A stretch of 64,000 bases of DNA from Raillietiella orientalis (lineage: Eukaryota). The DNA lies in assembly GCA_036172245.1 (NCBI GenBank), contig JAYWIR010000040.1, forward strand, positions 62,001 to 126,000, given 5' to 3'. Position numbers and translations under genes: made by a program. The notes below the pieces were generated by a model. That model saw only the letters and a list, made by a program, of their open reading frames with translations. It searched no databases and was not told the DNA's origin. Below, piece after piece: positions 11,046 through 47,857 of this stretch (position 1 is the stretch's first letter; each line of letters starts with the position of its first letter).

Positions 11046-11046
11046 A

Positions 11047-12474: not shown

Positions 12475-12489
12475 CGCGCGCCGTGGCGA

Positions 12490-21240: not shown

Positions 21241-21976
21241 TTGAAACCCGGGTGCGCCGGGACGTTTATTCTCACGAATAAACTTATACAATCTGTGACT
21301 GGACCAGTAGTCCAGCCACGCCCTGGAAAGATATAGCTTGCCGGGCTACCGGTGCGCAGACCGGCGCGGTCGACCTCGGCAGGAGAGGGGAGGGGGAACG
21401 AAACAAAAAGAAATCAAAAAATAAACAAAAATCAGGGAGGGAGCGGGAAGGGATCACAGTCTGCTGGGAGGGTCCGTCATCCTCTGGAGAATGCTGGCAA
21501 GCTGTTTCTGCGTGTGTGGTTCCAGGTGGGGCCATCGCGTCGCCATCCTGAGGAAACGGGCGGCATACACGTTGGCATCCCTGTCGCTGGATCCTCCCGT
21601 CGCTTTGCTCCATGCCACGACGATCCAGCGTAGACAGCACAGGGCTGCAAGCGAGGCCGCTGGAGGCAGGGCGTTGCGGACGAAGAGGGGGCGCAAAGCG
21701 TCTCTGGGGTTGCCTCCGGGGATCCCCAGGTTTGCGGCAAAGCGTTCCCACAAGGGACGGAGGGCAACACAATCCACTAACAGGTGGGGGAGGTATTCCC
21801 TCTCCCCGCACCTGACACAATTAGGGTTGACACCCCCCCGCGTCCAGTGGTGTCGGCGGGCGTTGCAAGGAAGCCCCCAATGCAACACCAGTAGCGACCA
21901 CGGTCAGACGTGTTCTCTGCGTGCTCCTGACTCGCTCGACTTTATTGGTGTAGTGCGGTGCATCAGTGGTCGGGGG

Positions 21977-26500: not shown

Positions 26501-27197
26501 CAGTAGCCAGCCGGCCATGTGGGAGGTCCGGTGTACGATCAGGGACACTGAGAAAGAACAAGGTGGTTGGACCACGGGTCAGCTTGCTGATGCCGCGATC
26601 CCAAGTTCCCCACCGAGAGGACTGTTGCGCTGGGGAGAGCTGCTGTGCATCCCGCGGGATGAACTCGAGTGGCCCCCAGTGCTGAGGAATACTCGGGCCC
26701 TCCCCCTAAAGTGGCAGGAGTCGGCGTTCCTGGTGTTGCACTGGGGACTCCCCAGCAACGCCCGCCGCTCTCATTGGACGAGGGGGGTTGTGGACCCAAA
26801 CTGTGTCAGGTGCGGGGAACGAGAAACTCTCCCGCACCTGCTCGTTGACTGTGTTGCCCTCCGGCCCCTGTGGTTGCGCTTTGCAAGAGCCGTGGGTGCA
26901 CCCTTGCACGCTCCCAGAGACGTTTTAAAGCGCCTCTTCGTGCGCGACGCCCTTTCGCCTGCCGCAGCCCTTGCAGCCCTCTGCTGCCTACGAGGGATTG
27001 TAGCGGCTTGGAGCACCGCCACTGGTGGACCGAACGATAGGGACATCTTGTGCTACGCCCTGCGCTTCCTGAGGACGGCAGCCAGATGGACCCATTTGGG
27101 ACACATGCAGTTTGAACTTGCCGGCATCCTGCAAAGGATGCAGAGGACGTCTCCAGCGGAACGTGATCCCTTCCCCAACCCCTCCCTGCTTTTGTAA
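23578..27197 (+). pseudogene. ORF2 APE-RT-CCHC polyprotein (family A)
   Basis: ATG CCG TGA puts a stop at codon 3, and there is a frameshift near 24290. LLQEIH, NVYAP, AGDFN, SDH, KAFD, QGD, YADD, YLG and CVRCGERETLPHLLVDC are all present. Confidence 0.92.
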
Positions 27198-27360
27198 ATA
27201 GTGCTTTCTTTTTGCTTTTTTCTATTTGTCCCTTCCCCCTCCGCTGCCGAGTCGACCTTGGGAGCCTGCGTGCTGCCCACTCGGCGAGTTCAGAAGAACA
27301 TGTTCTGAACACTGTAGGGGCGATAGCCCTACACTTGCTTGTTTATTTTTTTATTAAAGA

Positions 27361-27390
27361 AATAAACGCCCCGGCGCACCCGGGTGTAAA
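27361..27390 (+). promoter_or_regulatory. Conserved LINE 3' terminus: AATAAA plus CCCGG-loop-CCGGG hairpin (representative of 15 copies)
   Basis: AATAAACGCCCCGGCGCACCCGGGTGTAAA; variants mark every Tx1-like 3' end in the window. Confidence 0.85.
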
Positions 27391-30300
27391 AGCAGTACCG
27401 ACTGTTGCCACTTCATGGGGAGGGTGCGCGAGTCCATGAGCACCGGGGGCCACTCGAGATGTTCCTCCGGAACATCCAGTAGCTCGCTTCAGCGCAAGAG
27501 TCCGTGTGGGGTGGTCCTCGGGGTCGCAGCGTTGGTGAGCTGACCCGTTCTCCAATCCGCGATCTTCTTTGCCTGCTGGCGATCTTGACAGTAACCTCCC
27601 ATTGTGCCGCGACGTCGCTGCCCAGATGTTCCCGTAGGGTAGGCAGTACTGCAGCAAGGGAGGTTCTTAGTGCCAACGCTCTCCTTCGGGGATTCTCGAT
27701 GATTTCTCGGAGCGTGCGGTGGGCATGCGGCCCGGACAGAGCTATTCGCTCGTGTTGCGGGCTCTGCTCCTGAATCATCGCCCACGTGCGGACGGTTTCC
27801 TGCAACCAGGTAGGACCGTTCGCGGGGCGTACGAGGATCCGCGCCGAGTTGTTCTCCACGAGCTTGGCCGCCCTCCGAAGTTGAAGTCCGCAGTGGCAGA
27901 TGGAGCTTCGGAGTGCAAAGTAGGACGAGAGTCCCGCATTGCCGGTGGCCCGCTCGACGAGGAGACGTGCAGGGAGGCACCAAGAGGTGCACCAATTTTC
28001 TGCCATAAAGGCAACAACTCGGAACTGGAGCTGTAGCTCCAGCCGCTCCAACGTCAGGAGGCCCAGACCACCATCCCGACGAGGAGCGCACAAGTCCGAA
28101 AAACGGACTCGGGGCCTCCCTCTGCCCCAAAGGGCGATCCTCAGGAGGTCCTTCGTCCTCTTCTTTCACTCCGCTGAGGGGGGGCAAACAAAAAGCAAGG
28201 GGCGAAGGAGGGGGGCCGCAAACGCGTTCCACGCCGCGGCCCGTTCCTGCAGGTAGAACCTGCCGTCTTGGAACGGGCCGATCGCCGCCTGAGCCTTCTG
28301 AAGGCAGCCGGACCACGCTTCCGCAGGGGAGTACTCCCCCAACGGCACACCAAGGTACTTGAAGTACCTCACCGTGGGGATCCCCAAACGGACCCAGTCC
28401 TGCTGCCCTGCCCACGCCGCACCAACTGGCATCACGGACGACTTCGCCCTGTTCACCGTCAGTCCTGTTCCCCGACTCAGCAGGTCGAAGAACTCCTCGA
28501 CCGCCGAAGCCGGGGTGGACATAGGGAGCAGCAGCAGAAGATCGTCCGCGTATGCCGAAACCGCAGGCGTACCGGGAAAATCGCACGGCAGGTGCGCCAT
28601 AGTCTCCCTGTACGCTCTCAGCACCAATTCGAAATAGGCGCTGAAGAGCAGGGAGCTCAGGCTGTCTCCCTGCCGTATGCCGCGTCGCACCGGTACGCCG
28701 TACACGGTGGATCCACTAAAAAAAACATTAATAAGCGCGTCGCGCCAGCTGGAGCGCAGGTAGGCCAGCAAAGAGGCCGGGAAGCCCAAGCGTTCCAGAA
28801 GCTCCAAAAGGAGATTCTGGTCGACGCAATCGAATGCTTTATGCAAATGGACTGCGACCGCGAGAACTCCTCTCCCCTCCCGACCATACCGTCCCCCACC
28901 GACGGACGCACCGGAATTCCGGTTGCTTATTATGCTCCTTCCTTGTTGGAGCTCTAACCATGTGGAAGCGTGGAACAGGTTCGCCTCCATACTTCGCCCG
29001 GGAACAGCATATGTCTGTTCCGGGCTGATGAAGATGTTGGCAACCCGTTCCAGAAGCTCTGCCCACATCCTGGCTAGCAACTTGGCGTCCGCATTCACTA
29101 TTGTGATGGGACGCCAGTTCATGCTCCTAAGGTCTCCTCCCTTAGGGAGGAGCCGCACCTTTGCTGAACGAAACGAGGTGGGAACGTCACCTGTTTCGCG
29201 GATCAGCAAGGTGAGCTGATGTACCAGGGGAGTAAGCTCTGCCGCGAAAGTTTGATAAAATTCCGCAGGCAGGCCGTCCTCCCCTGGAGCCTTTCGCCTC
29301 TTGAGCTTTCCGATGGCCGAGATGATCTCGCCCATCGTGAAAGGCTCGTCGAGGTTCCTTTTCTCCTCCTCCCCGATTGCTGGAGCACCTTCCGGAAGCA
29401 GGAGTCGTGAGACAGCCTGCTCCGGAGGCGCCCTGGCGTACAGGGAGGAGTAAAATTTCCTCACTATCCCGCGTTTCTGAGCGGGAACCGAGTGCTCCCG
29501 GCCCTGGTCGTCCAGCAAGCTGGCCGACCCGGATTGCCAGGCTTGCCTCTCGGCTCCCGCTCGATACTCTGCTAACCTGCGCATGTCGGGGGTTCTCGCG
29601 TAACGTCGAGCCTGAAGATAGCGCCTTTCGTTACGCGGCCCCTCCCCAAATCCCGCAGGTAGGCGATTCAGAGGGAACTGGTCGCAGAACTCCTAGACCG
29701 ACCGCTTGAAGCGGTCCCAGTCCTGAAGTGTCTGCATCCTGAAGCTCCGAATAAACGCGCGGAGGTGCTCCGCCGCGTCGGGAAACTTCAGCCAGTCCCC
29801 TGGCAGACGCCACGCTGACGAGGGGGGGCCCTTGTCGCGCGGACGCACTTCGAACATGATCCGACCATGGTCCGACAGCTCGGATGGTACCTTGCCGCGC
29901 CTGCCCACCCGAGAGCATAGGTGCTGATCAAGGTACACGTGATCGATGCTGATTTCCATGGCCGTGTCCCCGGCCAACAAGTTGCGCGTGTTCATTTCTG
30001 CGCACAACTCGTTGACGCGGTCGTTCAGTGTATCCGGCGCACCTGAAAGCAGGCGCAGGTTGAAATCACCTGCGATCAGGTGCGCTTTGCGAACTCCTGC
30101 ATCGGTCAGCCAATCGCGTCTCAGGGCAAGGTAGAATTCCCTTCTTGCCTTCGCCCTCAACGCGTTGTTTCCGCTAGGAGCGTATAGGTTGGTGAAGACC
30201 AGGTCGATAGAGTCGGACCAGCTGAGAGTCAGCTGACCGACGCGACCTGCGTCATCGAACCGAACGTCCTTTATTGCGGTCTCGATGGCTGGCCGAAGCA

Positions 30301-32256
30301 GGAAGGCGACACCGCTTGATTTCGCGGTGCCGCAACGCCACAACAGCCGCCCACCCGAGATCCGTTCGATCTCCCGGGCTTGATCTGCGGAGATCACGTG
30401 GATCTCCTGCAGCAGCACCAGGTCGAAGGATGCCAGGGTGGCGGCCACGTCACGCCTCTTGCCGTCGTCGCTTAGCCCGTTCACGTTCCAACAGACGATC
30501 AGAAGACGACGGCGAGAGGCGATTCCCGGCATTATGGCTGGGAAAGTGGCGTCGCGACACCTGCCGCGGGGCAGGTGTAGGACAGGTCCATCGGTACGAG
30601 GACGGAGGCCTCTTCAGGCGCCTGGGGTACCTGTTCGGCCTCCATCCTCACCATCCCCTCCGTGTCCGAGCGTGGAAGTCTCTCGGGCGACGGGTCCCGG
30701 GAGTTTCCCACGCTCATGGCACCCTCGCTACCGGAAGCCATCTCTTCCCCTTCGTCGGGGGAGACGATCTTCCGTGGCATTGTGGACTTTCGTCCTGCCT
30801 TTTTGCGGGGTGCCGCGGAGATGGATGCTGTGTTTCCGGCCTTCTCCTCGGGGTCGGAAGTGGCCGACTCCTGAGGGGAAGCCGGACGCCTGACGGGCTT
30901 GTTGCCAGCCTTGGGGGCAACCGGCTGGAACGAGGCAGCCAGCTCCTCCGCGGCGCGCTCGAAGGCGACGTCATCGAGCGTGGGCTCGATGACGGACGCC
31001 GCCGCCTCGCTCCCCTCCTTGTTGACTTTGTCAACGGAGGGTTGAGCAGGGGCGGCAGCGAGTTCTTTAGCGCCGCATTCGTCGATGTTGGGAATCCGTT
31101 CTACAACGACGCAGCAGCTTTTAATTTTTTCGCTGCGCAGAGCGGTTTCGCTCCGTTTCGCCACGTTCTTTCCCTTCTTTTGGGAGTTTTTCTTGGGGTC
31201 GACCTTCTACCAACCTGGCTCTTGCCCCTCGCCCTCGACCTTTTCGGCGTTTTTCGCCGGGGTCTCGGGGCTGGCCTTCGCCTTGGTGGCGGAGGTGACC
31301 TCCTTAGCAGCAGCACGAGCTGCCAGCTTCTTTCTCTTTTTTGCCGCGCGCTTTCTCGCGTTTTTCGCGGACACGACGCGGACTGTGTTTTGGGGGCACA
31401 CCAGACGGGTGTGCCCCGCTTGTTTGCATTGCTGGCACTGCACGCTCGGACACCTCATTTTAAGGTGACCAAAGCTGCTGCAGCAGCCGCAAAACTTGGG
31501 TTTCCCCACGTACCACACGTCAACGGATTCACCGTTGACGGTGAGTTTGTGGGGAAACTCACATCCCTCGCGAACCGTCACTCGCGCTGCACCCAGGCCG
31601 CCAAGCACCCCGTCGTAATCGACAAAAGGAGTAGGCTTTCCCACAGCGCGTGGACAGTTGCAAATTTTTCTAATTCGTTCCGGATGGCCTCCTTGGTCAT
31701 CAGGAACGTGATACCGGTCAGGTGAATGATCACCGACCGGTCTTCAGTAATGGGGAGAAGCCTCCGCCTGCCCATAATTACGGGGATTCGCAGAAGTCTC
31801 TGCGCAAGAGTTGCCTCCTTGCATATAACTTCCACAAATTGACCCCCGCTTCTGACGGACATAGCGAGAAGCTCCTCTTTTTGTACACCGAGAACGCGCA
31901 TCGCCTGCGAAAAGGCGCGCGCGTTCTCGGGAGAATATAAACCGCCTACCTTATATAGAAGGGGTGGGTTATACCCCTCCTCCAGGTAAGCGCGCATTTC
32001 CGCCACAGCCGCTGGTGTAGGTGTCGCACCCACGGCGTTCCAAGCCCTGGGTAGGGCCGGGGGCGCATCCATGCTGGCGGAAGCCTCCACTGATGCGGGA
32101 GCCCCCACCTCCATCTCTTCCGGGGGCAATGAGGTCATCGCCCCCGGATCCTCACCGGTGGTGGTATCAGGCATTGCTTCCTAATCCTCCACCCACACCA
32201 CGCACAAGCACCAACGGAAATGAAACTCAGGAGCAACGAAAAGAGACGTCCGCTCG

Positions 32257-32926
32257 ACGCTCCAGAATCTCCAGGACTGGGACCGTTTTAAGGAATCGGT
32301 CCGCGAGTTCTGTGAGCAGTTCCCCCTGGATCGCCTGCCCCCCGGATTCGGCGAGGGTGCTCGCAACCATCGGGCCTATTTACAGGCTCGTAGGTACGAG
32401 AGAACCCCTAATGTCCGTCGCCTGGCCGAGTACCGCGCCGGGGCCAAACGCCAAGCCTGGCAATCCGGGTCGGTCAGCTTGCTGGACGACCAGGGCCGGG
32501 AATGTTCGTCCCCGGCGTCGGTACGGCATCTCGTGCGGAGTTTTTATTCCTCCCTTTACGCCAGGGAACCCCCGGATCGAAACGCCTCTCGGCGCTTGCT
32601 TCCGGATGGCGCCCCGGCAATAGGGGAGGAGGAGATGGAAAGCTTCGACGAGCCTTTTACCGCCGGCGAAATTCTCACCGGTATCAAAAGGCTCAAGAGG
32701 CGTAAAGCTCCAGGGGAAGACGGCTTGCCCGCGGAGTTCTTTCAGAGCTTCGCGGAAGAGCTGGCACCCCTGCTGCTTAAGTTGATCAGGCTGTTCCGAG
32801 ACGAAGGCGATGTTCCCGCCTCGTTTCGGTCAGCCAGAGTGAGGCTCCTTCCGAAAGGGGGAGACCTCAGGGATTTAAAGAACTGGCGTCCGATCACGAT
32901 CGTGAATACGGACGCCAAGTCGATAG
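32257..32926 (+). mobile_element. Family C copy 1, linker and RT N-terminal segment
   Basis: QDWDRFKESVREFC...KAPGEDG...WRPITIVNTDAK is colinear with C3 (57188-58903), and is cut by the G1 3' end. Confidence 0.88.
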
Positions 32927-35900
32927 TTGCCACCCGGTCACGCCGAGGCGTTTATTTGAAATTCTCTTTGGTTCGTGGTACGAGGCCCCACTACGGCCAT
33001 CTCTACTGGACCTGCCGGGTCGCCGGTACGCAGACCGGCGCGACTCTCCTCGGCAGCGGAAGGGGGTGGGGGAAAAAACAAAAAGAAAAATAAAACATAA
33101 AAACAAAAAGATTTGGGAGGGTTGGCGAGGGATCACTGACCACTGGGAGGAGGGTCCATCCTTCGCAGGATGCCCTCGAGGTCCGTTCGTATAATTCCCA
33201 GGTGGGGCCATCTGGTCACAATCCGCAGGTAGCGGACTGCAAGTACGATAGCATCCCTGTCGTGATTCGGTCTTCCGACGTTGCTCCAGCACGTCACAAT
33301 CCCGCGTACGCAGCAAAGTGCAGCCAGGGCAGCGGCTGGACGCAGGGCATCATGCACGAACAGAAGCCGAAAAACGTCTCTGGGCTGGCTGCCCTCCTGG
33401 ATCCGTAGCGAGGCACGAAGACGTTCCCACAGGGGTCGGAGGGCAGCACAATCAACAAGGAGGTGGGGGAGGGTTTCCCGTTCCCCACACCTGATGCAGG
33501 TAGGATCTACTCGACCCCTGGTCCAGTGGTGGCGGCGTGCGTTGCAGGGTAGACCCCAATGCAACAACAGAAGCGCCGACTCCTGCCACTTCAGGGGGAG
33601 GATCCTAGATCCAATTAATACCGGGGGCCACTTCAGGTCATCCGGCTGGATGCCGAGTAGCTCGCCCCATCTCTGCAGTCCTCTCGGTTTGACACTAGGT
33701 GTACTGGCGTCCGCCAGTTCACCCGTGGACCAGCCGCTGATCAACTTCTCCTTGCCTGCGATGCGGCAGGAGACTTGCCACCTAGGCTTGCGGCTGCTGG
33801 AGAGCGCCCTCCTCAGGAAGGGCATCGCCGTAGCTAGGGGGGTTGTCTCTGCCCACGTGCTTCTCGCGGGACACTGGAGTATCTTCCGCAGAGTGCAGCG
33901 GGAATAGGCGCCGCGTCGCAGGCAGTTCCACATCTCTGAGTTCTGCTCTTTGATATTCGCCCACGTGCCAGCGGTCTCCTCCAGCCATGCGGAGGAGTTG
34001 GCGGGGCTGCATTCCATCCAGCCGTTTTCCTTTGCCAGGGTTGCCATCCGTCCCAGGAGGAGTCCGCATCTCTTGATTTTCGAGCCGCGGCACAGAAGAT
34101 GAGACGCGAGACCCTCCGTTCCGGATACACGGCTGGCAAGGAGTCGGGCCGGAACGCACCATGGGGTGCTCCATAACTTCTCTGCGATGGCCAGGGTGCG
34201 CCATCGCAGCTGGATTTCTACTCTCTCCACCGTCAAGAGGCCCAGACCGCCATCCCGACGTGGAGCACACAAGTCCTTCAACTGGACTCGGGGCCTCCCT
34301 CTTCCCCAAAGGGCAATTCTCAGGAGGTCCTTTGTCCGTTTTTTCAACTCTCTGGGGACGGGGCAAACAAAAAGCAGGGGGCGGAGGATGGGAGCTGCAA
34401 AGGAGTTGCACACCGCGGCCCGTTCCGGAAGCAGGAACTTGTCTTGCAAGAACGGGCCGATCGCCGTTTTTACTTTTTGGAGGCAGCCGGACCACGCATC
34501 CGAAGGGGAGTAATCCCCCAACGGCACACCGAGGTACTTCAAGCACCTCGCCGAGGGGATCCCCAAACGGACCCAGTCCTGCTGCCCAGCCCACGTCGCA
34601 CCGACTGGCACCACCGACGACTTCGCCTTGTTAACCTGCAGTCCGGTTCCGCGGTTAAGCAGGTCGAAGAAATCCTCGACTGCCTTTGCCGGGGTGGACA
34701 TCGGCAACAAGAGGAGAGGATCGTCGGCGTACGCTGCTACGGCGGGCGTGCCGGGGCACGAGCTCGGCAAGAGGGCCAGCGTCACCCTATACGCTCTCAG
34801 CACCAACTCAAAGTAGGTGCTAAAGAGCAGGGGACTGAGGCTGTCACCCTGCCGTATGCCCCGCCGTACCGGCACGCCGTACGCCATTTGACCTCTGAAA
34901 GAGATATTGATCTGCGCGCTGCGCCAGCAAGAGCGCAGGTAGGTCAGTAGGGAGGGAGGAAAGCCCATGCGTCCCAGGAGCTCCAGCAGGAGATCCTGGT
35001 CCACGCAGTCAAACGGTTTATGCAGATCGACTGCGATCGCTAAGGCTTTCTTCCCCACCTGGGAGTCCTGTCCCTGCCCGGCTGACGCCCCCAAAGCGGG
35101 GCTGCCAATCCTTCCCTCTTCCTTTTCTTCACTACTCTGCACATGAAACCATGTGCTCGCGAAGAAGAGGTTGGCCTCCATACTTCGCCCGGGAACAGCG
35201 TAATTCTGCTCCGGGATAATTATGGAATTGGCCACCTGCCCCAGACGCGAAGCCCACAGTCCGGAGATCAGCTTCGCGTCTGTGTTCACAATTGTGATCG
35301 GACGCCAGTTGCTGAGTTTCCTGAGGTCTCCTCCTTTCGGAAGGAGCCTCACTCTGGCTGACCGAAACGAGGCGGGTACATCGCCTTCATCTCGGATCAG
35401 CCTTGTCAACTCAAGCACCAGGGGTGCCAACTCTGCCGCGAAGCATTGAAAAAACTCCGCAGGCAGGCCGTCCTCCCCTGGTGCTTTCCGCCTCTTGAGC
35501 CTTTTGATACCGGCGAGAATTTCGCCGGTGGTAAAAAACTCGTCGAGGCTTTCCTTCTCCTCCTCTCCTATTGCCGGGGAACCGTTCGGAAGCAAGCGCC
35601 GAGAGGCATCTTGGTCCGGGGGCGCCATGGCGGAAAAGGAGGAATAATAACGCCGCACGAGGTGCCGTATTCTAGCCGGAGCCGAGTGCTCCCGGCCCTG
35701 GTCGTCCAGCAAGCTGGCCGATCCGGATTGCCAGGCTTGACGTTCGACCCCGGCTCGATACTCTGCCAGGCGACGGACATTGGGGGTCCTCTCGTACCTG
35801 CGTGCCTGTAAATAGGCCCTATGGTTCCGAGCCCCCTCCCCAAATCCGGGGGGCAGGCGGTGCAGGGGGAACTCCTCGCAGAACTCGCGGACCGAGGCCT

Positions 35901-36722
35901 TAAAAAGGTTTCAATCTTTGAGACTGCGGAGGGTGACGCCTCTCAGGAATTCGCGAAGGTGTTCCTTCGCACCTGAGCGGCGCGTACAGTCCCCAGGCAA
36001 CCGCCACGCCCTGGACGGGGGTCCCTTGTCGCGCAGCCACACCTCGAATATCAATCTGGAATGGTCAGATAGTTCCGACGCAACTTTCCCTCGTTTGCCG
36101 ACCCGCGAGCCCAGGTCGACGTCCAGGAAGACGTGGTCGATGCTGCTGACCATTCCCGGGAGTTCCTTTAACAAGTTGCGCGTGCGCATGGCAGCGCACC
36201 ACCCGTTAGCAGTCCGTTCCTGTGTGCGTGGCTCACCTGATAGCAGGCGGAGATTGAGGTCTCCCGCTATCAGGTGAGCCACGCGCACGTTCGCTTCCAC
36301 CAGCCAGTCGTGCTTCAGGCTTTCCAGGAACGCCGCGCGTTCCCGGTACCTTTTATAACCGCTTGGGGCGCATACGTTTGTTACGACGAGGTCGATCGTG
36401 TCGGACCATCTGAAAATCAGCTGGCCGACACGACCGGCTTCGTCGAAGCGCACGCCCTTCACGGCAGCGTCGACCGCCGGCTTCATGAAAAACGCGACGC
36501 CGCAGATGTATCGGGTGCCGCATTGCCACACCAGCCGCCCCCCTGCGATCCTCTCGATCTCCTGGGCGTTCTCCCCGGTGATCACGTGGATCTCCTGCAG
36601 GAGTGCCAGGTCGAAGTCACGCAGGGTGGCTGCCGTGTCCCGTGTGTTGCTGTCGTCGCGCAGCCCGTGGACGTTCCAACATGCCACACGCAATCGACGG
36701 CGACAGGCGAGCCCAGGTGTTA
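32927..36722 (-). mobile_element. Tx1-like LINE family G, copy 1 (entire ORF2 region plus 3' UTR; ORF1 lost)
   Basis: TAACA junction at 36722-36718; APE 35911-36720; 859-aa RT-CCHC ORF 33133-35712; 3' hairpin at 32927-32956. Confidence 0.92.
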
Positions 36723-37402
36723 TTCCCTTAAGTGGCAAGAGTCGGCGTTGCTACTGCTGCACTGGGGTTTACCCTGCAACGCACGCCGCTTCCACTGGAC
36801 AAGGGGAGCTGTGGATCCTGAGTGTGTCAGGTGCGGAGAGCGGGAATCGCTCTCCCACCTTATTGTGGACTGTGCTACCATCCGACCCCTCTGGAAACGG
36901 TTCGGGACGACCCTCGGGCTCCCTACGGGCAGCACCCCCAGAGACGTTCTTCGGCCCCTCTTCGTGAAGGACGCATTGCAGCCAGCCGCAGCCATCGCAG
37001 CCTTGTGCTGCGTCCGTGGCATCCTGGCGGCATGGAACGACGCCAACAACGAAAGAGTGGGTCCACAGGCGAGGGATGTCATCCCGTATGCCCAATGCTT
37101 CTTGCGGAGAGCTGCCGGATGGCCCCAACTGGGGAATATGCAGACAGACCTCGAGGGCTTCGTTCGACGGATGGGCCCTCCCCACAGCGACCAGTGATCC
37201 CTTCGCTGCCCTCCAACTTCTTTTTGGTTGTTTCTTTTTATTTTTCTTTTTGTCTTATCCCCATCCCCCTTCGCTGTCGGGGAGTGCCACGCCGGGCTGC
37301 GTCCCGGTGTCGCGACAGGTCCTGTGTTTACGGCCGTGGTGGGGCCTCGTACCACGCATGTAGAGTTTACAAATAAACGCCCCGGGCGTACCCGGGTGAC
37401 AA
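36723..37402 (+). mobile_element. 3' segment of a family C element
   Basis: PLKWQESALLLLHWG...CVRCGERESLSHLIVDC; paralog of 55588-56270; hairpin at 37372-37402. Confidence 0.88.
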
Positions 37403-37417
37403 CGCCGAATCCCTTGG

Positions 37418-37443
37418 CGAGTGGACGTGTTTTTCCTTCGCTC
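37418..37443 (+). promoter_or_regulatory. Conserved 5'-terminal motif, putative internal promoter (representative of 11 copies)
   Basis: CGAGTGGACGTGTTTTTCCTTCGCTC; variants sit at the 5' junction of each intact element. Confidence 0.6.
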
Positions 37444-39634
37444 TTCAGAGAGTCGAGAGAAAGCGGTTTTTTCTTGTGTTGTTTGGTGTGGAACATCGTT
37501 GGTGTCCGATGGCAGCGATGCCTGAGGACACCACGATGGAGGTAGGTGTGGGGGAGGCTTGCCCACCCCCACAGCCTGCAGAGCATGTGGGGGCATCCGA
37601 TCCGGAATCGCCCTTGATGCCCAAGGCGAGGAGCTGGAGCCCGATGGTGGCCGAGCCGAGCGCGGAAACAATGGCCGAGATGGCGGCCTACCGGGCAGCT
37701 GGGTACAAGCCCAGCTTGGTGTATCAGATAGGCCCCTTAGTTGATGGAAAAACGGCACGCGCGTTTTCGAAAGCGCAGGAAAACGCCGGAGTTTAATAAC
37801 AAGATCTCGACGGCCTGTCCGTTCTCAGCGGAGGTCAGCGAGTCGAGGTGGTGTGCAAGGAGATCACGTTGGCTCAAAGTCTGATCACCAACTTGTTGAA
37901 CGTCGACGGCCGCAAGATCTTGCCGGTGACGATGGACCGCTCCGTGGTGGTCCATCTCACTGGAATCACGAGCCGTATGACTCGCTCTGCGGTAGCACAA
38001 GAACTTCGGAAGTTCGGCGAGGTGCACGCGCTGTGGCCTAAGCCAACAATCTTCGAAGGCTTTAACAGCCATTTCGGAGGCCAGGCTGCAGCGCGGGTAA
38101 CCGTGAATAAGGATTGTGGGCTTCCCCACAAGCTGGAGGTCGCGCAAGAGAGCGTGGACCTCTGGTACGTGGGAAAGCCCCGGTATTGCGGCTACTGGGA
38201 TACCGTAGGACACCTTCGCAAGAGGTGTCCTAACATCCAATGCCACATGTGCGGGGAGAAGGGCCACGTTCGACGTGTGTGCCCAAAACGATCCACCTTG
38301 GTTCCTCCTGCCGCGAAAAAGGCGCAGGGGAAACGCGCAGTAAAGGTCACAAGACCTAAGGCGGAACCTGGCCGGCAGAAGCTGCCAGATCCTCAACCTC
38401 CAAAAGAAAAGACGGAGGATAAACCTTCCCAAGTGGCGGAAGGTGAAGAGGGCTGGCAACTTGTAGCAGCCAGAAAAGAAAAAAGCTCCTTTAAAGGAGA
38501 AGAAAGAAAAGTCGGCCGGTAATGCAAAAAAACCCAAGCCGCGTTCGAAAACCTTACGCGAGTGCACGGTGGCATTGGAACGTGTCGTCGTTCCTGAAGG
38601 TGCCACCCGGGGAGACGAGCCTCCCCTCGCCGTTTTCTTCGCGCCCGAGGCTCGCGATGGCGAACCCTCTGTGCAAACAGAAGGTGAGCCGCGCGACGCC
38701 CCGGTCGACACCGAGGACGCCGCGTTCGCAAAGGCGGCGGAGGAGCTCGCGGCCACGCTGGCGGAGCGTGAGAACCCCTCACGCAAGGCCGTGCGAAGGC
38801 CGGCTCCCGCGAAAAAGGCCCCCACAGGTGAGTTGGACCTGGGGGCCGGAAGAACATCCTCCTCCTCGAAGGCACCCCCCAGGAAGTCGGGACGCAAGTC
38901 CCAGAAAGCCAGGAGGCGCCTCCCCTCCACCCGCGAGGAGGAGAAGACGGAAGGTAGCGGTAGCGTAAGAATCCCGGAGGGGGAACTCCCACGCTCGGAA
39001 GCCGTCGAGCCGGCCACCCCCATGAAGGAGGGTGAGCAGGGGGGCGAAGTCCTCCCTGCAGTCGCCGAGCCTGAACAGCCCGCCCCCATGGAGGAGGGCC
39101 AACAGGTAGGCGTGACCCCAACTGAGGGTGATCCGCTCGACGCGCCGTTACCCATGGAGGAGGGGGACCAGGTGCACGCACCGCCTGACTTTCCTCCTCC
39201 ACCTAGCGTCCCGCCCCAACAGGTGGCGGACGCCGCATCGCCATCTTTCCAGGAGTAACACCTGGGCTCGCCAGTCGCCGTCGGATTCGCTCCGCCTGTT
39301 GGAACATCAACGGGCTGCGCGACGACAGTAACAGGCGAGATGCGGCCGACACCCTGCGTGAGCTCGACCTGGCCCTGCTGCAGGGGATCCACGTGATCAC
39401 CACGGCAGACACCCAGGAGATCGAGACGACCGCGGGAGGTCGGTTGTATTGGCGATGCGGCCTCCGCAACACCTGCGGGGTCGCGTTCTTCGTGAAGCCG
39501 GCCATCGACGCTGCCGTGAAGGGCGTGCGCTTCGATGACGACGGTCGGGTCGGTCAGCTGATTCTCGCTGTAGCGCGACTGGCTGGCGGACACGAACGTG
39601 CGGAAGACTCACCTGATAGCAGGAGATTTCAATC
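37418..39634 (+). mobile_element. Family C copy 2, 5' segment; continues at 45539-45881
   Basis: Paralog of 14534-16752, including the same internal APE deletion and the same B insertion point. Confidence 0.92.
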
Positions 39635-42600
39635 GAGTGCGGACGTGTTTTTCTTCGCTCTCGTCTCCGTGCTTTCATCCGCTTCATCTTGGCGTCGTAC
39701 ATTTTGACGACGATGTCGACTAAACCCGAAGCTACTGAAGTTGGAGGAACAGCATCCGGATCTGCAATCGCGGAACCGACGGCCGCCTCCACTTCGTCTT
39801 TGTCGCCAATGGAGAGGAGTTTTGCTGACGTTGCCGCCACAGCAGCCGTCAAAGGGAAACCACTCGACGAGTCGGAGTTGCGGGCATACGTAGCTTAAGG
39901 CTATACACCTGCTCTCCGGTATAAGGTAAGTGGTTTTCTTTCTGCGCGCGACGGGAATCAGTTCAACGATGAACTGAACCGTGTTGGCGTGCGGGAGGAG
40001 GACCTCCTCGCCATTATGCCCGTAAAGGATATGGGCTATTTCAAGGTGCGTTGCAAAGACGCTGCACTTGTGCAACGCTTGCTGTGCACCCCGTTGTCGA
40101 TCCGTGGCCAGAAGGTCTTTCCGGCCGCCATGGACGACTCATTTGTGGCGGAGATTTTCGACATCGAGTCGGAAATCTCCGATATTGATATTCGGAACGC
40201 GTTGGCGAAATTCGCCACGGTCCATGCGCTGTGGAGGGTGCGTAGCAACCTCAAGGACTTCCCGTCCATACACAGCGGATTCGCTGGAGTCCGGCTTACA
40301 ATGCCGGACCGCCGTCTGCTGCCCACCAAACTACAGGTAAAAGACACGGTCGTTCACCTGTGGTTCGTGGGCAAAGTAAGAACGTGCGAGCAATGCGGGA
40401 AGGAGGGGCATTATTTGGATAAATGTACCTCTGGAAAATGCCGTTATTGTAAACTATCCGGGCACCAATTGAAAAATTGCCCGGATCTTTTGCGAAAAAA
40501 GGCAGCCGCGGAGCTCCATCTTAAGAAACAAAGCGCGGATATAAAGAAAAACTCTGCGAAAAACCTGGAGACCCCACGGCAGAAATTCCGTAAAAACGCG
40601 AAGCGGAATGTCGCCCCAAAGCTGCAGGAAGCCTTGCACGCGAAGCCCTGCGCGCCCCCTCTCACGGCAGGGAAGCCGCAAAAGAAAGGGTGCGGGGAAT
40701 CCGGGGCAATGGTGAGTCCCCCTAGGCGCAATAGATGTCCTTCCCAAGCACGCCCGGCTCTCTCGGAGTTCGAGCAACCGGCGGGGACGCCAATGGACAA
40801 CGGCGGTAAGGACACTTCCAGTACCGTCAGATCCATTCCTTCACCTCCTGCAGTGGCTGAGAAGCCCAAATCGGGTAAGAAGGGTTGTGCCGTGTCGACT
40901 TTGAAAGTCGGCAAAAAGAAATCCGCGTCGCGATCCAACACCGCGAAAGCGGAGAAAAATCTCACGCCGTCGCAGTCGGAGAGCAAGCTCTCGACTGGTG
41001 CGGATGCTATGCCAACGAAGGGATTAAAAGCCCTTCCGAAGGCAGCGCCCATGACGAGCGTGTCGAAGCCATCGATAGTGCTCCCGTACAAAGACGCGAA
41101 TGGCTTCAAAGATGGCAATGGAGCACAATCTCCATTTACGGCGCCACGCGAAGTGAGGAACCGTAATGAAGTAAAGAAGACTTCAGCAAAGGTCCCTCGT
41201 GCAAATGCGCGTGAGCACGCTGAAAACGCGGATGCCGCGAAAGCAGCCGTCACCAAAAGCGATGCTCTGGAGACGGAAAATGACAACAGGACAGCTGTCA
41301 ATCAATCAGAACCTGTCACTACTTCGCGGAAGGCCGAAACCCGATCGAACATGCGCCGGTCGGACTCCGAAATGGATGCCGTTCCGATCACCTAAACGAG
41401 GACAACTCGTTCAAATGCGTGTGTGCGCCGATCAAAAGTAGGCAACCAGGCAACGCTCGCCGCGAAGCAACGCGAAGTCCCCACGAAACCCGACGGGGTT
41501 AAGCCTGGCGTGGAGGCATTACATGCATGCAGCACGACAGCGGACGGTGGCGACCGTCCCCTCCAGCCAGTCGTGCTGCTCGCCGTCTGCTCGCCGGATA
41601 AAGCGAGCAAAAAGCCGCTACCTTCCCAGCAGTAATGCGGGGAATCGCGTCTTCTCGTCGTCTGTCCGTAACGTGTTGGAACGTGAACGGAATACAGAAC
41701 GACGAGAAGAGGCGATTAGTAGCCAACGCCCTGCGCCACTTCGACTCCGCGCTCCTGCAGGAGATTCACGTAATCTCCGACGAGCAGGCAGCCGAAATCG
41801 AGGAGCGCGCAGGCGGAACGCTACATTGGCGGTGCGGCGGCGGACATACGTGCGGCGTCGCGTTCCTCGTAAGAGGAAAAATGGCGGAAGCGGTGCGTAG
41901 TGTTCGTTTCGACGACGACGGACGGATAGGCCAGCTTGTCATCAAGTGGTCCGAGTCCATCGATCTCGTCGTTACAAACGTCTACGCGCCGAGTGGCTCT
42001 CGCTACCTCGAAGAAAGAGTAGCTTTCTTTGGTGAGGTGCAGAGCCACTGGCTGAAGAACTCCGGCTTCCAAGTGGCGGACCTCGTCGCTGGGGACTTCA
42101 ACGTCCGCCTGCTCTGCGACGATTGGAGCCGCCCGAGGGAGCGCGCGCTGCCCATCGAGATGTGCGCATCCGTGCACGCCGCCAACTTGATGGCCAGCGA
42201 ACCTGGAATGGAAAGATCGCTCGATCACGTTTTCCTCGATGAAAACCTGCATTCGCGTGTGGGTAGGAGAGGAAGATTGTTGACTGAGCTTTCTGACCAC
42301 CACAGGTTGGAGTTTGAGATTCTTCCGCCAGGCAGGGTGCCTCCGTTGCAAAGCTGGAGGATGCAGGCGGATTGGCTTAGCCAACCGGAGGCTGCGGAGC
42401 ATCTACGTGGACACCTCCGAGGCTTTGCCATTCAAGAACTTGCGGACTGGGACGATCTCAAAAGATCTGTCCGCGAGTTCTGCTCAATTCCCCTTGCACC
42501 GGCTTCCACGCGGTTTCGGACAGGGCGCGGCCAACAGTAGAGACTTTCTGCAGGCCCGCACGTTTTTGAGACGCGCGGATCTCGGGCGTCTCGCAGAGTA

Positions 42601-45538
42601 CAAGGCGAGGGCCGAGTGCCAGGTCTGGCAGTCCGGAGCAGCATGCCTGTTGGACGACAAGGGCCAGGAATGTTCGGCCTCAGCCGAAGTACGCCGCATT
42701 GTGAGACGCTACTACTCCTCGCTGTACGCGGAATCCCCGACGGAGGATATTCTTTCTGAGATACTCCTGTCTCAGGATGCTCGTGTTGTCGGCGAGGAGG
42801 AACGCGAACGTCTCGACGAGCCCTTCACGGCGGATGAATTTTCGTCCGCCATCGCTGGGCTGAAGAGACGAAAGGCGCCAGGCGAGGATGGGCTCCCTGC
42901 AGAGTTTTATGAGTGCTTCGCAGTGGAGCTCATTCCCTTGATGCTGAAACTCGCGACGCTGATGAGTGAATCCGGGAATGTCCCGGATTCCTTCCGCTCA
43001 GCGAAGGTACGTCTCCTGACGAAAGGCGGAGACTTGCGTCAACTTGACAAATGGCGCCCGATCACTTTGGTGAACTCGAACGTCAAGTTGTTTTCCAAGC
43101 TGTGGGTCGCGCGGTTAGGAAGTATCGCGGAATCTGTGGTGAGACCGGAACAAACCTACGCGGTTCCGGGACGATCCATGGAGGCGAACATCCTTTTCGC
43201 GCGTACATGGATGCATCTGCAGGAAGTTGAGGCGCAGCAAAGCCAGGTTGCTGCGAGAGTCACTGCCGCAGGCAAGAAGAACAGGCGCCGACGGCAGGAG
43301 GGAACGCCAGGTGCCTTGGCGGTCGCGGTCGATCTTCACAAGGCGTTCGACTGCGTAAACCAGAAGCTGCTTTTGGAGCTTATGGAACGCCTTGGGTTCC
43401 CGGCGCACCTCCTGCTGTATTTGCGCGCGTGCTGGCGCAACGCGCTAACCTGCATCACTTTCAGCGGCTGGCGCGTGTATGGTATTCCCGTTCGTAGGGG
43501 CATCCGACAGGGCGACAGCTTAAGCCCGTTGCTCTTCAGCATCTTCTTTGAGTTGGTGCTAAGAGCATACAGGCTGACGCTGTCTCACTTGCCAAGCTCC
43601 TGCCCGGGAACGCCTGCCGTGGCAGCCTACGCTGATGACCTGCTTCTTGTGATCCCCGTGTCCACCCCGGCGTCAAGTGTCGAGGATTTCTTCGACCTGA
43701 TTCGTCGCGGAGCGGGCGTCAGCGTGGACAGAGAGAAGAGCGTGGTCGTTCCTGTGGGTACGTCGTGGGAGGGGCAGTCCGACTGGATCCGCCTGGGGAT
43801 CCCCACGGGCGGGTACTTTAAGTACCTTGGCGTTCCGTTGGGCGCTTTCGGCGCATCCGGAACGTGGGCGGACTGTCTCCAGAAAGCAGAGTTGGCCATC
43901 AGCCCGTTCTTCAACGGCAAGTTCACCTTGCAGGAACGGGCGACTATTTGGAACACCTTTGTGGCCCCCCTCCTCCGTCCCCTGTTTTTTGTTTTGGACC
44001 CCCACTATGCGGCAAAACAGCGGGCTAAACGCCTGCTCAGGAACGCTCTCTGGGGTCCGGCGAGATCCAGGATCGGCCTCAAAGATTTGTTGGCTCCGCG
44101 TCGGGATGCTGGTTTGGGTATCCTGACAATGGAGCAAATCGGACTGCAGGTGCAGTTCCGACTGCTGGCACTGTGTGCCCAGCTATGGACATCCCCCCTG
44201 TGTGTGCCAGCCCGCATTCTCCTGCGGAGATGCGCCGGCAGCGGAGGATTTCTCTCGCTTTTGCCGGGCACTCAATACATGAAGCGGGGTTTCGGTTTTC
44301 CATTGCAGCAGTTGACCGCACTTCTGGAAGCTCACTCGTGGATCTCCTGCCGCCCAATGAACTTTGAAGCTTGGCGGCAGGAGTCTGTTGAATCCTGGGC
44401 GGCGTTTTAAGGAATACGCCCTGAAGATCTTCGCCCCCTGCGTCAATTTTTTCCACGATCCTTGGAAGAAGTACTGCAGGACGAGGTGAAGTTTTCTACC
44501 CTGGCTGCCACACCTCTTGCCGCAGCGCTGTCTGCCCTCAGGGCAAGAAACGACAGTTACCAACCGGCGTGGTGGGAGGTTTCCTGCACGATAGCGGGAA
44601 AAACCAAACTCTTGGCGCCTGGAAGTCGAGTGAGTTGTCGGACGCCGCCACTCCTCGTGTTACTGCAAAGGGACTCCTCCTGTGGGCAGAAGAACTTGCT
44701 GTCACCCCCGAAGAACTTGTAGTCCCTTCACAGTGTACTGACAGTTCGCTGCTCCTCCTTGCTTGGAAACAAGCCGTGCTGCTTTTCGTTCACTGGGGTT
44801 TTCAGTGCAACGAGCGTTGGCATCGTGACTCCGGGGGACTTGCGTCTGCGAACTGCGTTCGGTGCGGATCGACGGAGTCGATTCCGCACCTACTTCTGGA
44901 CTGCGGTGTCCTACAAGGACTGTGGCGTAGGCTGGCAACAGCAGTAATGCATCCCCTGGACACCGCAAGAGACTTGCTGCGACGATTCTTCACGCCGAGC
45001 GGGCTGTCACTAAGCGCAAGGATTGCAACCATCGGTTGCATACGCGCGATAGTTTCCGTCAGCCAGGCGTTGGTAATCAACGGACAGCACCAAGAAGTAA
45101 TCAGCAAAGCATCCTTCCACATGGGAGCATCCGCTAGATGGCCTCATTTGACAGAGGAGACAAAAAGGAATCTCGCCGCAATACACCGCCGGTTTACACA
45201 CGCTCAGCAGCGGCCAACCCGGTGATCATTGCTCTACCCTCCATAAACTAATTTTGCATTTTCCTTTCACACCCGCGTCCCCATAGGCTCCGGAACATTT
45301 CAGGTGCTCAGCGTATAAATCCTCGTGAGTACGGAGCCTATCCAAAAACCCGTTACTCTTCCCTCCAGTTTTTGATTTTTGTTTGTTTCCCCTCATTCCT
45401 CCCACGCTGCGAGCGGTCTGCTTACCAGGCCTGCGTGTTGGTAATTTTTCTATGTTCGCTGTCGTACTGTTGGTTGGGAACATTGTCCCTGACCAGTTTA
45501 TTATTATTAATAAACGCCCCGGCGTGACCGGGTGATAA
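39635..45538 (+). mobile_element. Full-length family B copy 2 (about 5.9 kb), inactivated
   Basis: Perfect 9-bp TSD ATTTCAATC at 39626-39634 and 45539-45547. ORF1 39713-41635 has stops; TAATG at 41633-41637; ORF2 41635-45225 has frameshifts and a stop at 44408-44410. Confidence 0.94.
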
Positions 45539-45881
45539 ATTTCAATCTCCGTCTGCTAACAGCTGAGCCAGAAACACAAGAGAACGCGATGAACGAGTTG
45601 TGCGCCACCATGCGTGCGCGCAACTTGTTCGCGGGTGAGAGGGGAATGGTCCGCAGCATCGACCACGTCTTCCTCGACGCTGACCTGTGTTCACGGGTCG
45701 GCAAACGGAGGAGGGTTGCGTCGACGTTGTCGGACCATTCCCGGTTAATTATCGAGATGCGGCCTCGCGACAAGGGACCGCAATGCAGGGATTGGCGTCT
45801 GCCGGGGGACTGGACGCGACTCTCAGGTGCGAAGGAACACCTTCGCGAATTCCTGAGAGGCGTCACGGTCCAGAGTCTCTG
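45539..45881 (+). mobile_element. Family C copy 2, APE C-terminal segment
   Basis: Paralog of 20898-21240. Confidence 0.9.
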
Positions 45882-47347
45882 TTTAAACCCGGTACGCCGG
45901 GACGTTTATTTTTTCAAATAAACTCATATAAACTGTGACTGGACCAGTAGTCCAGCCACGCCCTAAAAGCATTCAGCCTGCGGGGCTACCGGTGCACAGA
46001 CCGGCGCGGTCGACCTCGGCAGCAGAAAGGAGGGGGAATGAAAGAAAAAGAAAAGAAAAAAAAATAAACAAAACTGGGAAGGGAGCGGGAAGGGATCACT
46101 GTCTGCTGGGAGGGTCAGTCATTCTCTGGAGGATGCCGGCAAGCTGTCGCTGAATGGTGGGTTCCAGATGGGGCCATCGCGTCGCCATCCTCGGGAAACG
46201 GGCGGCGTACACGGTGGCGTCCCTGTCGCTGGAACCTCCCGTCGCTTTGTTCCAAGCCACGACGATCCTGCGTAGGCAGCACAGGGCTGCAAGCGAGGCC
46301 GCCGGAGGCAGAGCATCACGGACGAAGAGGGGGCGCAAAGCGTCTCTGGGGTTGCCTCCGGGGATCCCCAGGGCTGCGGCAAAGCGTTCCCACAAGGGAC
46401 GGAGGGTAACACATTCCACTAGCAGGTGGGGGAGGTATTCCCTCTCCCCGCACCTGACACAATTGGGGTTGACACCCCCCCGCGTCCAGTGGTGTCGGCG
46501 GGCGTTGCAGGGGAGGCCCCAATGCAACACCAGGAGTGCCGACTGTTGTTACTTCATGGGGAAGGTGCGCGAGTCCATGAGCACCGGGGGCAACTCCAGA
46601 TGTTCCTCCGGAACATCCAGTAGCTCGCTCCAGCGCAAGAGTCCGTGTGGGGTGGTCCTCGGGGTCGCAGCGTGAGCTGACCCGTTCTCCAATCCCCGAT
46701 CTTCTTTGCCCTGCTGGCGATCTTGACAGTAACCTCCCATTGTGCCGCGACGTCGCTGCCCAGATGTTCCCGTAGGGTGGGCAGTACCGCAGCAAGGGAG
46801 GTTCTTTGAGCCCACGCTCTCCTTCGGGGATCCTCGAAGATTTCTCGGAGCGTGCGGTGGGCGTGAGGCCCGAACAGAGCTATTCGCTCGTGTTGCAGGC
46901 TCTGCTCCTGAGTCATCGCCCACGTGCGGACGGTTTCCTGCAACCAGGCAGGACCGTTCGCGGGGCGTACGAGGATCCGCTCCGAGTTGTCTTCACGAGC
47001 TTGGCCGCCCTTCGAAGCTGAAGTCCGCAGTGGCAGATGGGGCTTCGGAGTGCAAAGTAGGACGAGAGTCCCGCATTGCCGGTGGCCCGCTCGACGAGGA
47101 GACGTGCAGGGAGGCACCAGGCGGTGCACCAATTTTTTGCCATAAAGGCAACACTGTGGAACTGGAGCTGAAGCTCCAGCCGCTCCAGCGTCAGAAGGCC
47201 AAAACCGCCGTCCCGACGCGGAGCGCACAAGTCCGCGAGACGGACTCGGGGCATCCCTCTGCACCAAAGGGCTATCCTCAGGAGGTCCTTCGTCCTTTTC
47301 CTAGACTCCGCTGAGGGGAGGCAAACAAAAAGTAAGGGGCGAAGGAG
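45882..47347 (-). mobile_element. Family D copy 2, 3' segment (no A insertion)
   Basis: Paralog of 21241-21890 plus 27391-28210, continuous across the A site at about 46530. Hairpin at 45882-45910. Confidence 0.9.
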
Positions 47348-47857
47348 TCCCAGACCACCATGGAGGAGGGGGATAAGGTGAGTGATTGCCGCCTTCTCCC
47401 AACGGTAGAACCTGTCCAGGAGATAGCCATGGAGGAGGGGGAGCAGACAGTTGACAACCGCTCCCCCCTGCCGTCCAACGCAGCCGACGAATCGGTCCCC
47501 ATGGAAGAGGGGGAGCAGGTGCGTGGAACCCGCCCCCTTCAACCGTTGCGGTCCGCCGAGGAATCGGCCCCCATGGAGGAGGGAGAACCGGTGCGCGGAG
47601 ATCCCGTTCCTCCATCCGTCCCGCCCGACCAGGTGGCGGGAGCCCCATTGCCACTTTCCCTGGAGTAACACCTGGGCTCGCCTGTCGCCGTCGATTACGC
47701 GTGGCTTGCTGGAACGTCAACGGGCTGCGCGACGACAGCAAAAGTCGGGACACGGCCGCCACCCTGCGTGACTTCGACCTGGCACTCCTGCAGGAGATCC
47801 ACGTGATCACCGCGGAGAATGCCCAGGAGATCGAAAGGATCGCAGGGGGACGGTTGA
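47348..47857 (+). mobile_element. C/G-like fragment: ORF1 C-terminus and ORF2 start
   Basis: Four MEEG repeats, TAACA at 47666-47670, then ACWNVNGL..LLQEIH. Confidence 0.85.

Follow-up and report, generated by a model that had tools for sequence, protein, structure and literature searches.

We analysed a window of 64,000 nucleotides (nt) of genomic DNA from Raillietiella orientalis (GenBank assembly GCA_036172245.1, contig JAYWIR010000040.1, positions 62,001 to 126,000 of the forward strand); this whole stretch is called the window below and is numbered from its first letter. The window is a cluster of L1-like retrotransposons without long terminal repeats (non-LTR retrotransposons) from at least seven families, and in three places two of these elements stand head to tail. 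At each of the three junctions a 3' end is followed by a piece of the length of one target-site duplication (TSD) and then by a full 5' end, so that three of the 11 mapped 5' ends sit 15, 15 and 17 nt downstream of a 3' end on the same strand (3/11). A preceding sequence-only reading of this DNA had described three same-strand 3' ends placed 15-17 base pairs (bp) before 5' ends, with spacers mutually unrelated in sequence; all three are present in the sequence, and we agree on the spacers. No further same-strand pair of a 3' end and a 5' end at 0-30 nt was found in the window, and when the 11 5' ends were placed at random, three or more fell within 0-30 nt in 1 of 200,000 trials. The pattern is real and is not due to chance. 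We give about an even chance to the explanation that a sequence-specific insertion came first and that another element then entered the copy of the target which this insertion had restored on its upstream side. The analysis covered this one window and one related sequencing run, with two to three copies per family.

The window has a G+C content of about 0.59, and nested non-LTR retrotransposons fill nearly all of its 64 kilobases (kb). The elements, denoted here by letters, are made up of an apurinic/apyrimidinic (AP)-type endonuclease and a reverse transcriptase, plus a first open reading frame (ORF1) with CCHC-like spacing of cysteine and histidine residues. The longest frame (59210-62836, minus strand, 1208 amino acids, aa) is an ORF2 with Pfam matches to Exo_endo_phos (2.3e-7) and RVT_1 (4e-17), and zf-RVT of Pfam was found in further ORF2 copies. 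The same 1208-aa ORF2 matched human LINE-1 ORF2p with E = 3e-45 and an L1 endonuclease chain with 2.4e-4. The match of the 498-aa ORF1 to the CCHC zinc knuckle of Pfam was weak and below threshold. A protein search returned 72 relatives, the best of them only 20-29% identical and with generic names or none.

The anatomy of the cluster was mapped by tblastn with ORF1 and ORF2 of family X, by self-alignments and by TSDs, which measure 8-17 bp across the window. All families share a 3' terminus of the form AATAAA(C/T)G(C/T)CCC-GGCG...CCGGGTG plus a few bases, without poly(A), in which the 5-bp hairpin stem is invariant, with no covariation, among 11 aligned 3' ends. A search for ATAAA[CT]GCCCC with at most one mismatch gave 18 matches, and 15 of them were accepted as element ends; those at 11250, 11649 and 15394 were discarded as ends due to the absence of the hairpin context. 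The full-length copies start with CGAG.GGACGTG(T)n.

The first junction, on the plus strand, reads ...AATAAACGCCCCGGGCGTACCCGGGTGACAA (3' end at 37402), CGCCGAATCCCTTGG (37403-37417), CGAGTGGACGTG... (5' end at 37418), and both its upstream and downstream partners, C1 and C2, belong to family C. The features that bear on it are as follows.

12778 to 14518, minus strand: J, the host element, with ORF2 from about aa 297 to the C-terminus (zf-RVT) and the 3' untranslated region (UTR) down to 12490; broken by C1 at 14533/14534

14519 to 14533, plus strand: 5' copy of the C1 TSD, in-frame J ORF2 in antisense, codons K-G-V-G aligned to R-G-F-G of the X ORF2

14534 to 37402, plus strand: C1, a composite of 22.9 kb, consisting of C 14534-16751, nested X1 16752-20897, C 20906-21240, nested G (minus) 21241-32256, C 32257-32926, nested E (minus) 32927-36726 and C 36727-37402

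32927 to 36726, minus strand: E, truncated at its 5' end and inserted into C1 in antisense, at the codons D-G-K-L-V of ORF2 (about aa 496)

37372 to 37402, plus strand: 3' terminal motif of C1, AATAAACGCCCC-hairpin-GGGTGACAA, last base 37402; the motif is common to the 11 aligned 3' ends

37403 to 37417, plus strand: spacer of junction 1, CGCCGAATCCCTTGG, the 3' copy of the 15-bp TSD of C1, from host J ORF2 (antisense)

37418 to 39633, plus strand: C2, with a full 5' end (CGAGTGGACGTG), ORF1 and ORF2 to about aa 165; beyond the nested X2 it resumes at 45547-45879, until the 3' end of G' interrupts it

39634 to 45538, plus strand: X2, full-length, inside C2 at the endonuclease G-D-F-N codons, with the TSD ATTTCAAT at 39626-39633 and 45539-45546

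55592 to 58888, minus strand: C3, a third C-family copy with another 3' flank; X3 (58897 to beyond 64000) is nested in it at the same site, and inserts of G or E are absent

The spacer of junction 1 is a TSD copy of the upstream element C1 and is derived from the ORF2 of its host, because the 15 nt before C1 match it at 14 of 15 positions and are in-frame J ORF2. The one-mismatch match to 14519-14533 had already been pointed out in the sequence-only reading as a TSD-sized flank, and only 1 of 60 shuffled 15-mers did equally well. At 14519-14533 the host ORF2 reads KGVGDGV..., in comparison to RGFGEGV of X (KGVGDGVRNERAYLQAR aligned to RGFGEGVANSRDFLQAR). The same 15-mer was also considered as the own 5' end of the C element, and this was rejected since J and P both have it as in-frame host ORF2. 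Twin priming (5' inversion), which could have placed an antisense 5' UTR beside host ORF2, was likewise discarded, C1 being complete with its own TSD.

The continuity of C1 over its 22.9 kb is given by the 17-bp TSD of the nested G (21224-21240 and 32257-32273, 15/17) and by the intact site of C3, which unites both halves. Within C1, X1 is inserted in sense orientation at the endonuclease G-D-F-N codons with the TSD ATTTCAAT, G is inserted in antisense at about aa 277, and an H element (plus strand, about 21899-27390) is nested in G. Element E takes the place of about 1.7 kb of C1 (ORF2 from about aa 498 to 1054; edges at 32920-32927 and 36726-36727), and its truncated 5' end meets C1 about 20 nt from the spot homologous to that where H entered G. 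This could be explained by two E-type insertions that later recombined, or by a deletion of the target.

The explanation we favour would proceed as follows. The endonucleases would nick preferred sequences, many of them in conserved codons of the ORF2 of other elements and usually on the antisense strand. The first nick of target-primed reverse transcription would be the upstream edge of the future TSD, and the insertion would duplicate 8-17 bp. After the insertion the upstream flank and the upstream TSD copy would be unchanged and the nick site kept, and therefore a sequence-specific endonuclease could nick there again. A second element with the same specificity would then be primed at that position, the second-strand nick at the usual stagger would fall at the boundary of the TSD and the resident 5' end, and the product would read host, TSD, new element, TSD, old element. 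We infer from the arrangement the endonuclease specificity, the re-nicking of the upstream TSD copy and the younger age of the upstream element. Of the outer flanks, the upstream one at junction 1 has its TSD copy (14519-14533); the other two pairs are both interrupted at their outer ends.

Junctions 2 and 3 are both on the minus strand. At junction 2, the 3' end of J at 12490 is followed by TCGCCACGGCGCGCG (12475-12489) and CGAGAGGACGGACGTG, the 5' end of M at 12474; at junction 3, the 3' end of F1 at 6977 is followed by AGCCGACCCCCTCCATT and GTTCGGACGTG, the 5' end of L at 6959.

12475 to 12489, minus strand: spacer of junction 2, TCGCCACGGCGCGCG, between the J 3' end and the M 5' end

12126 to 12474, minus strand: M, 5' UTR and the start of ORF1, cut by the 5' end of N (about 12125, C-like)

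6977 to 9961, minus strand: F1, a member of family F that runs from about aa 275 of ORF2 to the 3' end and shares about 92-96% identity with K; broken at 9961/9962 by the 5' end of Q (plus)

6960 to 6976, minus strand: spacer of junction 3, AGCCGACCCCCTCCATT, one TSD-length copy of the F target, antisense endonuclease codons I-A-G-G-R-L

6416 to 6959, minus strand: L, with 5' end (GTTCGGACGTG), 5' UTR and ORF1 to about aa 100; its far side adjoins a C-like 5' fragment

The third spacer had been noticed before and does exist, at coordinates shifted by one base (6960-6976 rather than 6961-6977). It agrees with the K flank in the same register at 12 of 17 positions and with the intact site in E at 13 of 17, and the 5' end of L begins right where an F-type second-strand nick would fall. 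The spacer of junction 2 agrees with a TSD by its length alone, and junction 2 may be classed with the other two junctions by analogy only. As a candidate origin of this spacer we considered the antisense P-A-V-A codons just upstream of the YADD box of the reverse transcriptase, and we rejected it (12/15 at best, the level of shuffled sequences).

L and M had been proposed as the 5' ends of families F and J, respectively. The nearest relatives do agree, since both L and F are closest to X, and both M and J have G and H as their nearest relatives; the assignment is weak nevertheless. The ORF1 of L shares 49.5% identity with that of X, in comparison to 31-41% for the remaining non-X ORF1 copies, and the ORF2 of F shares 72% with that of X, in comparison to about 35-69% for the further long ORF2 matches that belong to neither X nor F (69-77% in the case of P). 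L may be an F-type 5' end, weakly suggested because its ORF1 and the F ORF2 are both closest to X. No second copy of L or M was found in the window.

The use of the same exact insertion sites in different hosts was observed in further copies, listed below.

52447 to 53743, plus strand: E', with its 3' junction at the same nucleotide as E, in a different host (G-like, 53744-55587)

6303 to 6415, plus strand: C-like 5' UTR fragment in host P (minus), at the same ORF2 nucleotide as C1 in J; the P site reads AGFGDGVANSRDF...

47858 to 52446, minus strand: K, the second F-family copy, with its 3' junction in the same I-A-G-G-R-L antisense register, in an E-like host fragment (47348-47856)

Over 32927-34223 (minus) and 52447-53743 (plus), E and E' agree at 1289 of 1297 positions (99.4%), in comparison to 387 of 520 (74.4%) for their host flanks. 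Their 3' junction nucleotide is identical and lies inside the antisense of the D-G-K-L-V codons, the hosts being C1 and a G-like element. This alignment indicates that E and E' were inserted recently, in independent events, at a single nucleotide. C1 in J and the C-like copy in P likewise share their 5' junction nucleotide, with 84 of 109 positions identical between the inserts (77%) and 243 of 394 (62%) between the hosts. The flanks of F1 and K agree at a fixed register, A(G/A)CCG.CCCCCT.C..T (12/17, P = 1.3e-4), and the flank of K continues into its E-like host. In one contig of the related sequencing run, an F1-type 3' end is joined to the I-A-G-G-R-L antisense site and followed there by 46 nt or more of host; this contig may correspond to the F1 or the K locus. 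For at least three families (E, C and F), insertion at one and the same nucleotide is seen in hosts unrelated to each other. In addition, G in C1 and Q in F1 are inserted about 11 nt apart, in homologous codons next to D-W-D.

We also noticed that the 5' end of the C-like element N (12126-12145, minus) has ..GCCGAA.. upstream, at the same 19-nt distance from GGACGTG as the copy at 6303, and that C1 has GCCGAC. This hints at a possible short core in the C-family target, in a setting where the overall flank identity is low and depends on the register.

These sites suggest that several families of long interspersed nuclear elements (LINEs) choose precise positions inside the coding sequence of other LINEs. 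A more far-reaching version, to which we give somewhat less than an even chance, is that the window hosts a guild of co-resident L1-like families, in which each endonuclease is tuned to a different block of conserved ORF2 codons of its competitors, mostly in antisense. The targets would then be the (F/V)-G-(D/E)-G codons near aa 297-301 for C, the endonuclease I-A-G-G-R-L for F, the reverse-transcriptase D-G-K-L-V for E, the codons next to D-W-D for G and Q, and G-D-F-N for X. A keyword search of the literature, which is no proof of absence, found no description of co-resident LINE families each aimed at defined codons of the ORF2 of the others.

Alternatively, the pair C1-C2 could have been formed at the DNA level: a C element already carrying X and G would have been duplicated from one of its 15-bp TSD copies to the other (through unequal exchange, template switching during replication or a rolling-circle route), yielding J, TSD, C, TSD, C. 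We rate this main rival as less likely than a double insertion, and tandemisation through the TSD had been put forward before for these junctions; it is possible at junction 1 owing to the nested X and G shared by both copies, whereas the uneven divergence opposes a plain duplication. For junctions 2 and 3 it would call for the same route or for later unequal exchange in an existing dimer. Gene conversion from other copies would then have produced the uneven divergence. The presence of H in G only would make H a later event, and the growth of dimers by unequal exchange is documented (PMC5932611).

Several observations speak against a double insertion, and the first three of them also for such a duplication. 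Unit 1 (14519-21894) and unit 2 (37403-46536) are collinear (7.4 and 9.1 kb) and begin exactly at the 15-mer; C1 and C2 have their X inserts at a common site, and so too their G inserts (in C2 the 3' part of G); and an identity of 96-99% runs unbroken across the boundary of C and X, as duplication of a composite predicts. A double insertion needs either separate, site-specific entries of X and G into both C copies or retrotransposition of a C[X] composite of about 12 kb; on that reading, either X and G would have entered C1 and C2 separately or the C[X] composite would have been copied as a unit. Beyond C2, which is rearranged, one would expect a third TSD copy and the remainder of J; neither was found in the window. 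The specificity is not absolute: the G-like host of C3 was entered at an unrelated site, and low-GC non-LINE sequence surrounds an H copy (3336-3722) with 99% identity. The best match of spacer 2 elsewhere is 12/15, a value equalled by 58 of 60 shuffles, and spacer 3 taken alone matches ORF2 sites at 13/17, equalled by 47 of 60. The family assignment of L and M is weak, too.

The divergence within the pair, on the other hand, stands against a simple duplication. The ORF1 regions of C1 and C2 are only 61-88% identical, no nearer to each other than either is to the third copy N, and the nested inserts have diverged unequally, with 97.2% identity for X1 and X2 and 92.5% for G and G'. The TSD copies beside G and G' differ at 6 of 17 positions (P = 1e-3), and their 3' tails differ. 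The upstream copy has 44 private substitutions, compared with 79 for the downstream copy (P = 0.002) and 85 for the unlinked C3[X3], and the tandem partners are as distant from each other as from C3[X3]. Furthermore, three exchanges through repeats of 15-17 bp would be surprising amid kilobase-long direct repeats with 65-96% identity, which are far likelier partners for recombination. The divergence of the C copies fits three insertion events independent of each other, the most recent of them upstream, which is the order expected from re-nicking; gene conversion could, however, rescue the duplication model. Along the alignment, the identity of C1 14669-15834 to C2 37553-38720 (ORF1) is 61-88%, that of the first 150 nt is 96%, and that after about 15834 is 96-99%. 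This mosaic looks like an exchange of an ORF1 module between sublineages, or like gene conversion.

Insertion into a regenerated target was one of three mechanisms named in the sequence-only reading, as re-cleavage of a previously used target, and it fits best among them, given that spacer 1 is a TSD, spacer 3 resembles the target and the sites are reused; the step of re-nicking would itself have to be deduced from these.

Another mechanism proposed there, integration guided by the promoter of a resident element as for TRE5 or Ty3, would send the newcomer to a fixed distance upstream of a resident 5' end, whatever the local sequence. The constant spacing of 15-17 nt in three cases and the conservation of the 5' motif CGAG.GGACGTG are in line with it, but spacer 1 is the own TSD of the upstream element in host ORF2 sequence, and 8 of the 11 5' ends have no 3' end upstream. 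In addition, the same families use the same targets with no resident 5' end following, as seen for K (47858), the C-like copy at 6303 and E and E', and we regard promoter guidance as very improbable.

Template jumping is a property of non-LTR reverse transcriptases, and the same-strand, head-to-tail layout would also be produced by a chimera at the RNA level, in which the reverse transcriptase, on reaching the 5' end of its first template, switched to the 3' end of another RNA, leaving the spacer as a short 5' transduction. This requires transcripts of at least two families to start exactly one TSD length upstream. C2 moreover holds the antisense G', which makes a single complementary DNA, of about 9 kb or more, unlikely, and the 15-mer is also found in place in J (14519-14533). 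We give such a chimera very little credence.

Least credible of all is an assembly artefact by which repeats were misjoined at element ends: the region is highly repetitive, the junctions are known from the assembly alone and the contigs of run X1 are mostly less than 95% alike, but the copies differ by 3-40% and so represent distinct loci rather than a collapsed repeat, and all three joins, in different families, coincide exactly with TSD boundaries and leave the termini intact.

The sequencing run used here (public DNA run X1, not to be confused with element X1) contains 21% of the sampled words of the window, and no RNA run was among the runs listed as containing window words. At 85%, 307 contigs of run X1 were aligned to window positions 1-20000, with 243 of them less than 95% alike, 43 at 95-99% and 21 at 99% or more. 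By these identities the contigs look like relatives or other copies rather than this locus. No contig bridging junction 2 or 3 was found among the contigs listed (6 of 209 loose ends shown).

As regards known systems, the type of junction described here is already known (R1, P-element and jockey dimers, Utopia tandems), and the targeting of LINEs by LINEs is the more interesting point. Double insertion is how tandem elements with a TSD between them come about; in the account of PMC5932611 it is documented for P-element and jockey dimers and proposed for the R1 array of Drosophila melanogaster, with 33 nt of ribosomal DNA (rDNA) between units (McGurk & Barbash 2018). R1 is likewise a sequence-specific non-LTR element with an AP endonuclease, and the dimers likewise consist of head-to-tail units with a short piece of target between them (33 nt for R1, 8 nt for the P-element; PMC5932611). 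In contrast to R1, which targets rDNA, the elements of the window have ORF2 codons of other retrotransposons as targets. In contrast to the R1 and P-element dimers, the window contains at least three pairs from different families within 64 kb, with spacers of 15-17 nt and with shared nested inserts in one pair.

The Zepp elements of green algae have a poly(A) tail. Zepp and ZeppL form L1-type clusters in which existing copies are targeted, according to the account of Craig et al. 2021 (PMC8226300), and dense L1-type nesting into existing copies is also present in the window, as indicated by the tblastn map, the TSDs and the similarity to L1 ORF2p. In that account, however, Zepp arrays consist mostly of the 3' ends of one family, due to 5' truncation, whereas the window holds at least seven families and 11 full 5' ends. 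It also differs from Zepp in its 3' hairpin motif without poly(A) and in insertions that are mostly antisense at defined codons.

Tx1 and R1 clade elements share with the window families an AP-type endonuclease and strict targets (PMC4640811, Kojima & Jurka 2015), and the likeness drawn here is one of these traits. The same source places Utopia occasionally in tandem in U2 genes and names 'transposons' among the known targets of sequence-specific LINEs. The window families differ from those clades in that each apparently has a different target in the coding sequence of the others, and in that the specificity is not absolute. TRE5-A of Dictyostelium and Ty3 of yeast integrate position-specifically upstream of transfer RNA genes (PMC5391098), at a fixed short distance. 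Both are guided by RNA polymerase III (Pol III) factors and not by sequence. In the window, by contrast, the spacer is the own target of the family together with its TSD, and the site is used without a downstream resident.

A tandem pair joined through a TSD has been proposed as the initial stage in the conversion of a dispersed transposon into a satellite array, and the junctions of the window are clean examples from a non-model eukaryote and an L1-like element. If LINEs do select sites in other LINEs, this would explain how islands composed of transposons only (e.g. the centromere-like clusters of algae) can assemble without damage to genes, look-alike 'segmental duplications' in such islands could be repeated site-specific insertions, and the families would be a source of AP-type endonucleases with new, defined specificities. 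If the guild exists, a self-contained island would result from mutual insertion and inactivation, and since targets are regenerated in the TSD, arrays would grow by repeated hits; a nested 'doll' such as C with X and G would be rebuilt independently and mimic a segmental duplication. The open frames of family X (the 1208-aa ORF2 and the 498-aa ORF1) make the idea of targeting experimentally testable.

The open ORF2 of family X is found in copy X3 (59210-62836, minus) and the open ORF1 in copy X2 (39899-41395, plus). The three X copies are 95-99% identical, and therefore family X may be, or may recently have been, active. One contig of 3755 nt from run X1 contains a full-length X without the deletion of element X1 and starts 29 nt inside a C-type host, at the same site.

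Other features of the window lie outside these subjects. Region 1-4600 has a lower G+C content (0.43-0.50) and, in tblastn, no LINE protein match besides a 5'-truncated H copy (3336-3722, minus), which is 99% identical to H at 27001-27352; this copy shows that H is young and that its targets are not confined to LINEs. No Pfam match was obtained for the 260-aa frame of this region (566-1348). Directly after the 3' end of P, at 4603-4806 (minus), there is a same-strand ORF2 piece (aa 632-698) with 79% identity to that of P itself, which is either a tail-to-internal arrangement or a sign that P is nested in sense in another element. P lacks everything from about aa 776 to its 3' UTR.

At 10050-11060 (minus), between the 5' fragment of Q (plus) and N (minus), there is a low-GC, 5'-truncated fragment of another type of retrotransposon. 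Its ORF (10155-10835, 226 aa) had no Pfam match; in a search against solved structures it matched the C-terminal part (about residues 940-1380) of R2 retrotransposon proteins with E = 9e-10, and a CCHC and a PD..D..K-like pattern were read from its sequence alone. Imperfect repeats of about 72 nt coding for P-M-E-E-G-E-like units occur at 47358-47600 (plus), between ORF1 and ORF2 of the E-like fragment, and such units are also present in C1 (about 16130-16390) and C2 (about 39000-39270). Finally, a plus-strand 5' UTR fragment of about 90-113 nt is joined twice to the interior of a minus-strand ORF1, at 6303-6415 (plus)/6416-6959 (minus) and at 9962-10050 (plus)/11060-12125 (minus); the joins fall at about aa 100 of L and at about aa 260 of N, the latter with the R2-like piece in between.

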